Virus record (IMG/VR): IMGVR_UViG_646311924_000019
Direction: 5' to 3' (one strand)
DNA: 47,189 nt
Origin: a virus
Taxonomy: Duplodnaviria > Heunggongvirae > Uroviricota > Caudoviricetes
Shown here: positions 23,643 through 24,421 of the stretch, piece by piece
Numbering within the stretch: the first letter of the stretch is position 1
Layout: each line of letters opens with the position of its first letter
Notes under the pieces: generated by a model
Told to the model about the DNA's origin: nothing
Database searches by the model: none
Seen by the model: only the letters and a program-made list of their open reading frames with translations
Position numbers and translations under genes: made by a program

Positions 23643-23957
23643 TTAGCATTTTTTTGACCGCGCGTTTCCGGACGTATTCTGTTCTCCTGTCCCTTTATAT
23701 CGTCGGAATACCCGCCGCTCTTCAAATCCCATTCCCAACTCAGAATGTAGTCGGTTGACCGCTTGTTTTATTTCGGTCAGGTTCACCGGTGAAACCGGAG
23801 TCCGGCGCGCCTTACGCAAACACTCTGCTCGTTTCTGTGCCGCCACTTTTCTTTTCTGGTCATCACTTAGCTGTACCATCACTTTTGCCCATCGTTCAGC
23901 TGCTCTCCGGTACAGTCCTTTTTTCTCCAGACATTCTGCCAGGTGATCATGTAGCAT
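23643..23957 (-). CDS. PerC-family transcriptional activator (Pch-like)
   Basis: 104-aa ORF with GGAGG Shine-Dalgarno; motif GLYRRAAERWAKVM typical of PerC/Pch regulators; 460-bp AT-rich region upstream. Confidence 0.7.
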   Translation of the reverse strand: MLHDHLAECLEKKGLYRRAAERWAKVMVQLSDDQKRKVAAQKRAECLRKARRTPVSPVNLTEIKQAVNRLHSELGMGFEERRVFRRYKGTGEQNTSGNARSKKC

Positions 23958-24421
23958 AAGTAACCTCCGTTTATCTACAGACTGCCATCCTGAATTAACC
24001 GTCCTTAATAAGACAACAATAAAAAACTAATTATATAAAAACAATAAAAATAATATACAAAAAAAACTAAACAACAAAGAAAAGCAAATCATATCTGGCA
24101 TTTTAATTGAAAGAGCAATTACCGAACAAAAGACGCTGACTATATACTCAAAACCAAACAACAATTCTGCCAATCAGGTATCATGGCAACACACGGAATT
24201 ACCATGTTTTTGCCTTCTCTGCCCATACAATACGGGCATATACTTCATACTCTATTGTAATATTTCTATCCATGCGCCCCACTCCATTTACCTGTAAATA
24301 ATATTCAAAATATTTATCACAGAAATCGTTTTTGGCCATGAACTGAGCACACTATAAAGTCCGGAACTGACTCTTTGTTAAATTACCTTAACGTTACCAG
24401 TAACACCTTCGTAACAAAACA

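Follow-up and report, generated by a model that had tools for sequence, protein, structure and literature searches.

The Pch proteins are master switches of attaching-and-effacing virulence in enterohaemorrhagic Escherichia coli (EHEC). PchA, PchB, and PchC all activate a ler::lacZ fusion, PchB most strongly, and PchD and PchE are nearly inert; with the chromosomal fusion, PchB yielded 12,513 Miller units compared with 1,577 for the vector, an approximately eightfold activation (PMC5931665). Pch activates LEE1 only when H-NS, StpA, Hha, and YdgT repress the promoter, and it lowers H-NS occupancy both in vivo and in vitro (PMC4764244), which marks it as an anti-silencer. Direct DNA binding by the PerC family is disputed, since one report saw no in vitro shift of LEE1 DNA with PerC of EPEC (PMC6094958). 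PchABC are confined to LEE-positive strains (PMC6724679) and were present in all six O111 strains tested, five of which carried Ler (PMC2323221).

Expression of the pch genes is itself subject to several inputs. LrhA activates pchA and pchB (PMC13012123, PMC4456613), and pch transcription has been reported to respond to LrhA, to Lrp/LeuO with butyrate, to ppGpp/DksA, and to NtrC/sigma-S. Translation of pchA is blocked by pairing of its Shine-Dalgarno sequence with a stretch inside the coding sequence, a block that the small RNA DicF relieves at low oxygen (PMC7769764, PMC9438474, PMC7873438). Prophages are also known to combine Pch with Psr-type AraC regulators and effector genes.

Here, we analysed a stretch of 47,189 nucleotides of tailed-phage DNA (hereafter the window), which matches O111:H8 EHEC chromosomes at 100%, the LEE lying outside it. 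We are highly confident that the locus at its centre is a pchB-type group-1 pch gene, forming a self-contained cargo cassette (a 'moron') of about 960 bp in the slot between Rz and cos of a lambdoid prophage from O111:H8-type enterohaemorrhagic E. coli. The features discussed below are compiled in the following table.

Table. Features of the pch locus and of related cargo in the window, in order of position
Feature	Position	Strand	Basis or remark
nleC-type effector, 328 aa, beyond the tail-fibre genes	1..987	minus	Pfam Peptidase_M85 E = 1e-111; zinc protease, HEIIH motif
Terminase small subunit (Nu1 type), first gene after cos	22404..22910	minus	Pfam Phage_Nu1 E = 2.9e-20; PGAP
cosN, 12-base lambda cohesive end GGGCGGCGACCT	23126..23137	minus	Unique exact match, 0 expected by chance
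YlcI/YnfO-family gene, 74 aa, convergent with pch	23337..23561	plus	Pfam DUF3950 E = 1.8e-18; NCBIfam YlcI_YnfO_N
Terminator-like hairpin AAAAAGCGAC-CACTAAA-GTCGCTTTTT, A/T-run flanks	23580..23606	both directions	Between convergent pch and ylcI
pch coding sequence, 104 aa, pchB allele (group-1 PchABC)	23643..23957	minus	Pfam PerC, Sakai alignment
Proximal leader block, extremely AT-rich, T-tract-rich, allele-specific	23958..24110	minus	
Shine-Dalgarno sequence GGAGG	23964..23968	minus	Read from the sequence; six bases 5' of the pch ATG
48-aa ORF in leader	24027-24173	minus	
Distal leader block, conserved, strictly pch-linked	24111..24421	minus	
46-aa ORF in distal leader	24199-24339	minus	Named a hypothetical protein by PGAP (WP_001096932.1) in some RefSeq genomes
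Rz spanin gene (PGAP start 24889)	24422..24913	minus	Pfam Phage_lysis E = 1.5e-46; same-strand upstream neighbour of pch
Rz1, embedded in Rz	24484-24669	minus	
Lysozyme	25187-25720	minus	
Holin	26283-26498	minus	
AraC-family regulator, Psr type, beside tRNA cluster	33042..33755	minus	Pfam HTH_AraC, HTH_18
DicF small RNA copy	44807..44858	plus	Rfam RF00039, 75 bits vs gathering score 48

The assignment of the gene rests on both profile and allele comparisons. Its ORF matches the Pfam family PerC (PF06069) with E = 5.4e-44 and 148.8 bits (cut-off 22.6) over profile positions 1-89 of 90, so that the Pch-like 104-aa regulator proposed in the first-pass annotation, for which the lack of a PerC-domain hit had been named as a refutation, carries an essentially full-length domain. 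An alignment was made with pchA, pchB, and pchC, the group-1 genes of E. coli O157:H7 Sakai, which is the comparison with known alleles that the annotation had proposed. All 104 residues agree with Sakai PchB (ECs2182; 100% identity), and a single residue separates the protein from PchA (L6V) and another from PchC (V58M); these differences fall at nucleotides 16 and 172, the published diagnostic positions (PMC5931665). For this identical protein, the ler reporter assay that the annotation had also proposed is already in the literature, with the activation of ler given above. The coding sequence is one synonymous base apart from Sakai pchB, and PGAP names the protein in O111 chromosomes a PerC family transcriptional regulator (WP_001302717.1). 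Its Shine-Dalgarno sequence, upstream of the ATG that serves as start codon of the 104-aa ORF, is kept in all four aligned alleles, and the 12 synonymous and 9 non-synonymous changes counted among six alleles are consistent with constraint on the coding sequence.

More distant relatives were found by tblastn on E. coli plasmids (including NC_010862.1), where EPEC-type PerC is 46-47% identical over residues 2-88 (E = 1e-17); the matched plasmids carry an annotated PerC family regulator. A single-sequence AlphaFold prediction with five helices was a poor model (mean pLDDT 50.5, pTM 0.31), a PDB sequence search with the protein gave no match at E up to 1, and no NCBIfam model matched Pch or NleC. 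Paralogues of the pchD/pchE kind do exist in EHEC genomes (PMC6265319, PMC5931665), and one could ask whether the present gene is such a non-functional or diverged PerC copy with barely any effect on LEE. This is next to inconceivable, however, as it is refuted by the complete identity to PchB, which activated ler more strongly than the other four proteins tested, and ORF, Shine-Dalgarno sequence, and terminator each remain intact. The gene is thus best read as PchB, a known virulence regulator that has been studied experimentally and is found here in its customary setting.

That setting is the late region of a lambdoid prophage. On the minus strand, holin, lysozyme, and Rz (with Rz1 inside) are followed by a 464-bp gap, pch, the YlcI/YnfO gene on the opposite strand, and the terminase subunits. 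We consider the intervening cos site real, since GGGCGGCGACCT is unique in the window and the segment from 23484 to 23138 aligns at 90% identity with the last 347 bases of lambda (48156-48502). The regulator had been described as lying next to cos, which is approximately right: its stop codon is 505 bp away, and the 74-aa YlcI/YnfO gene lies between. Many O111:H8 and O111:NM chromosomes carry the 1,951-bp pch neighbourhood without a single difference.

Alignment to related phages delimits the cassette precisely. With respect to lambda, the breakpoints are located at 24443/24444, in the 3' end of Rz, and at 23484/23485, inside ylcI, enclosing 959 bp; homology stops and resumes at 24444 and 23471 in the comparison with the K-12 prophage DLP12 and at 24430 and 23471 in that with an Stx2a phage. 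Up to window position 24444, Rz is 81% identical to lambda Rz. The enclosed segment comprises the leader, pch, a hairpin with A and T runs, and the 3' tail of ylcI. Elsewhere the same slot holds other genes, namely bor, p78, and p79 in lambda (1,747 bp), borD, ybcV, and ybcW in DLP12, and a small hypothetical gene in the Stx2a phage, so the initial proposal that the regulator sits where lambda has bor agrees with the alignments to both lambda and DLP12. The slot breakpoint falls inside the YlcI/YnfO gene (23471-23561, plus strand), of which the N-terminal DUF3950 part is common to lambda, DLP12, and Stx phages and the C-terminal tail is cassette-specific. The predicted fold of the hairpin is more stable than expected on either strand (z = -2.9 for the minus and -2.6 for the plus strand), and the hairpin is kept in all aligned alleles.

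The cassette also behaves as a unit across genomes. Among 5,426 complete E. coli genomes, pch together with its leader occurs in 672, always at a coverage of at least 80%, with a median of 3 and a maximum of 5 copies per positive genome. The distal part of the leader tracks pch exactly at the level of genomes: the 672 positive genomes are the same for both (1,872 places for the distal leader, 1,877 for pch), and none of the 5,426 has this part without pch. Lambda, DLP12, and an Stx2a phage lack it. Co-inheritance of pch and leader is therefore strict. Deposited phage genomes lacked the cassette, with the exception of a 3-kb fragment from an O157 strain. Judged by its layout, the locus is a classical phage cargo of the 'moron' type.

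From the Rz stop (24422) to the pch ATG there are 464 bp (23958-24421) with a G+C content of 33.2%, whereas the window averages 52.3%. No more than 0.04% of 464-bp segments reach so low a value, and the minimum for stretches of this length in the 47-kb window is exactly this leader, which bears out the AT-rich upstream region of 460 bp noted at first. G+C drops to 19.8% in the leader core (24000-24110), and AT peaks at 82-92% between 24022 and 24096, about 65-140 bp 5' of the ATG, where the coding strand carries T-tracts of 4-8 bases. The gap had further been called ORF-free, and this holds in substance: it contains two short minus-strand ORFs (46 and 48 aa), neither of which is credible. No Shine-Dalgarno sequence precedes the 46-aa ORF, and its changes among six alleles are 9 non-synonymous versus 2 synonymous, giving no sign of coding constraint; it is therefore probably not a gene and was rejected as such.

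Comparison of alleles divides the leader into two blocks of different conservation. Across the distal block, six alleles reach 95-99.7% identity, which makes this block as conserved as the pch coding sequence; it shares 99.7% identity with pchB and 95-97% with pchA, pchC, and two further alleles. The proximal block is 98.7% identical to Sakai pchB, compared with 61-77% for the pchA, pchC, and A25 alleles (73-77% over the proximal 150 bp or so at the PchA and PchC loci), and between allele types part of it is not alignable. To judge from these alignments, the leader is of the pchB type in both blocks, and its two-part structure suggests that a promoter-proximal module has been exchanged between paralogues. 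The proximal differences between PchA/PchC and PchB would imply different promoter-proximal control. These allele-specific blocks may bear on the differential regulation reported for the pch paralogues.

We searched the leader for signals that could account for such control. A candidate promoter (TTGTAT-19-TATAAT, 24060-24030) is found in the pchB type only, and its score is no better than background. In a sigma-70 weight-matrix scan, the best leader site reached 9.96, compared with a mean of 7.31 per 500 nt (sd 1.73, 95th percentile 10.3), and a scan for consensus promoters returned no minus-strand site in the leader. Matches with up to two mismatches to the high-affinity H-NS motif (TCGATAAATT-like) numbered 36 in the window versus 36.5 expected, that is, no enrichment; the leader holds one of them, with two mismatches. 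H-NS occupancy of pch promoters is not reported in PMC4764244 or its supplements. The initial comparison with H-NS-silenced virulence promoters is an analogy drawn from AT content, by which the pch promoter itself may be silenced by H-NS. The 464-bp leader would carry pch's own promoter together with regulator sites, and it may itself be bound by H-NS.

Transcription from the phage late promoter upon induction would be a second source of pch mRNA, because the gene lies on the late-gene strand and no terminator follows Rz. Taken to its extreme, this leads to a view of pch as mainly a passenger of the phage late operon, transcribed by read-through from pR' after induction, with the AT-rich gap as a spacer. 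The arrangement is compatible with such a role, as pch shares its strand with the holin, lysozyme, Rz, and terminase genes, the interval between Rz and pch contains no terminator-like site, and the gap offers no promoter scoring above background. SOS induction by an antibiotic raises the pchB and pchC transcripts (PMC5931665), which fits this position on the late-gene strand downstream of an unterminated Rz. A mere spacer, however, would hardly be inherited with pch in 672 of 672 genomes or retain 95-99.7% identity in its distal part, and the cassette has a terminator of its own. Moreover, LEE expression of uninduced cultures has been shown to depend on Pch, and LrhA, butyrate/Lrp, and NtrC control pch transcription; both published observations mean that pch needs a dedicated promoter. 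We therefore consider a mainly passenger role improbable, and retain the leader as the putative regulatory region of pch.

The conservation of the distal block, equal to that of the pch coding sequence, might also reflect a product of its own, either the 46-aa peptide or a structured RNA, encoded at 24111-24421 in addition to regulatory DNA for pch. All six alleles keep the 46-aa reading frame open, and in some genomes PGAP lists its translation as a hypothetical protein. The minus-strand RNA of the distal leader (about 24100-24421) has a predicted folding energy of -85.9 kcal/mol (z = -3.0), and none of 100 shuffled sequences was as stable. Against a peptide stand the substitution pattern and missing Shine-Dalgarno sequence described above, and the ORF has no Pfam match. 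Against a structured RNA, the plus strand, too, is predicted to fold more stably than its shuffled versions (z = -2.1), so that part of the signal reflects base composition or sequence symmetry; none of the 107 predicted pairs shows a compensatory change among the six alleles, and several variants break pairs. A search of 23300-24600 with Rfam returned nothing relevant at E up to 1. On this balance, a separate product of the distal leader is very improbable, and we prefer to regard the block as part of the presumed pch control region.

The prophage carries a copy of DicF, the small RNA that acts on pchA. Nucleotides 1-24 of DicF are predicted to pair with pch at +79..+105, a stretch invariant in four alleles. 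The pairing of this 5' arm has a computed energy of -24.2 kcal/mol, which was matched by 2.7% of shuffles and by 10% of other prophage windows, and the predicted specificity is thus only modest. The full-length DicF duplex, at -48.9 kcal/mol, lies about 2 sd below the window mean, with many other windows scoring better. In local folds, the pairing of the pch Shine-Dalgarno sequence with its coding sequence was context-dependent and not distinctive (z = -0.23). It is from the published work on pchA, and not from these predictions, that we infer that DicF may act on the present pch copy as well. The pch genes of Sakai Sp4 and Sp11 are likewise paired with a DicF copy; DicF was not seen in the 50 kb fetched around Sakai Sp14, which cover most of that prophage.

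The observations on leader and DicF can be combined into a more speculative scheme, in which the leader is a two-part device: the stable, pch-linked distal part of about 310 nt would serve as a structured 5' leader, a processing element, or the 46-aa peptide, and the exchangeable, hyper-AT proximal block would rewire individual copies to different signals, with DicF co-inherited. We regard this scheme as unlikely on the whole.

For the action of the protein, the individual steps can be taken from experiments on identical or 99%-identical O157 proteins. According to these, pch transcription would follow the host-environment regulators LrhA, Lrp/LeuO-butyrate, ppGpp/DksA, and NtrC/sigma-S. The Pch protein would then bind AT-rich DNA at the LEE1 (ler) promoter and dislodge the H-NS/StpA/Hha silencing complex there, and the Ler protein so turned on would activate the LEE type III secretion system together with non-LEE effectors.

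The window contains further cargo. An nleC-type effector gene and an AraC-like gene had been pointed out on the same prophage as pch, and Pfam matches confirm the presence of both. The NleC-type ORF, which ends exactly at the window edge, presumably differs at a number of residues from O157 NleC. A tail-fibre ORF (1691-3010, minus strand) encodes a long run of collagen-like Gly-X-Y repeats. Over 195 aa, the AraC-like protein shares 99% of its residues with ECs_2191 of Sakai Sp11, and its best NCBIfam resemblances are to YdeO and GadX, both below the cut-off. Three tRNA genes adjoin it (32765-33013, minus strand), and the small RNA STnc100 (29280-29452) and the sok antitoxin RNA of a hok/sok module (37305-37479) lie on the same strand; STnc100, sok, and the three tRNAs are also present in Sakai Sp4, Sp11, and Sp14. 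IS66-family ORFs at 30140-32556 (plus strand) have the sizes of the tnpA, tnpB, and ISEc47 transposase genes annotated by PGAP in a related O111 locus (L001), and an IS3-family element with an ALIL frameshift pseudoknot (46792-46908) occupies 45976-47189 on the minus strand. The prophage is probably defective. Given the published co-carriage of these gene types on prophages, the trio of pch, nleC, and the AraC-like gene represents a described pattern. Earlier publications already cover this gene, where it lies on prophages, its activation of ler, and its occurrence alongside Psr-type AraC regulators and effector genes, so the locus does not in itself reveal new biology; recognizing the pchB copy helps to annotate the virulence potential of an O111-type prophage.

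The closest counterpart is the pchB locus of Sakai Sp11, which encodes the same protein, has a leader that is 98.7-99.7% identical, the same terminator, and the same place between Rz and YlcI/cos/terminase. Like the prophage in the window, Sp11 also carries the 99%-identical AraC-like gene by a tRNA cluster and a DicF copy. It differs in its O157:H7 host, in the nleG genes at its tail-fibre end, and in its IS content, compared with the O111:H8-type background and nleC of the window. PchA (ECs1091, Sp4) and PchC (ECs2737, Sp14) are 99% identical proteins encoded in the same cassette and slot. The order Rz-leader-pch is common to Sp4, Sp11, and Sp14, and in Sp11 and Sp14 the small terminase gene is next, whereas Sp4 shows a rearrangement and has IS629 adjacent to pchA.

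Beyond the Pch proteins, the EPEC EAF plasmid encodes PerC, which shares their Pfam family and likewise targets the LEE1/ler promoter. In contrast to the single-gene prophage cassette of pch, PerC is plasmid-borne within the perABC operon and shorter, and its dependence on H-NS and growth conditions is reportedly different from that of Pch (PMC4764244, PMC6094958). With respect to position, the nearest parallels are bor of lambda and borD of DLP12, which occupy the same slot, flanked on one side by the 3' end of Rz and on the other by the YlcI-like stretch that precedes cos, and which likewise benefit the host and are dispensable for phage growth. They encode an outer-membrane lipoprotein and are unrelated to pch in both sequence and function; moreover, bor is oriented opposite to the late genes, whereas pch is co-directional with them.
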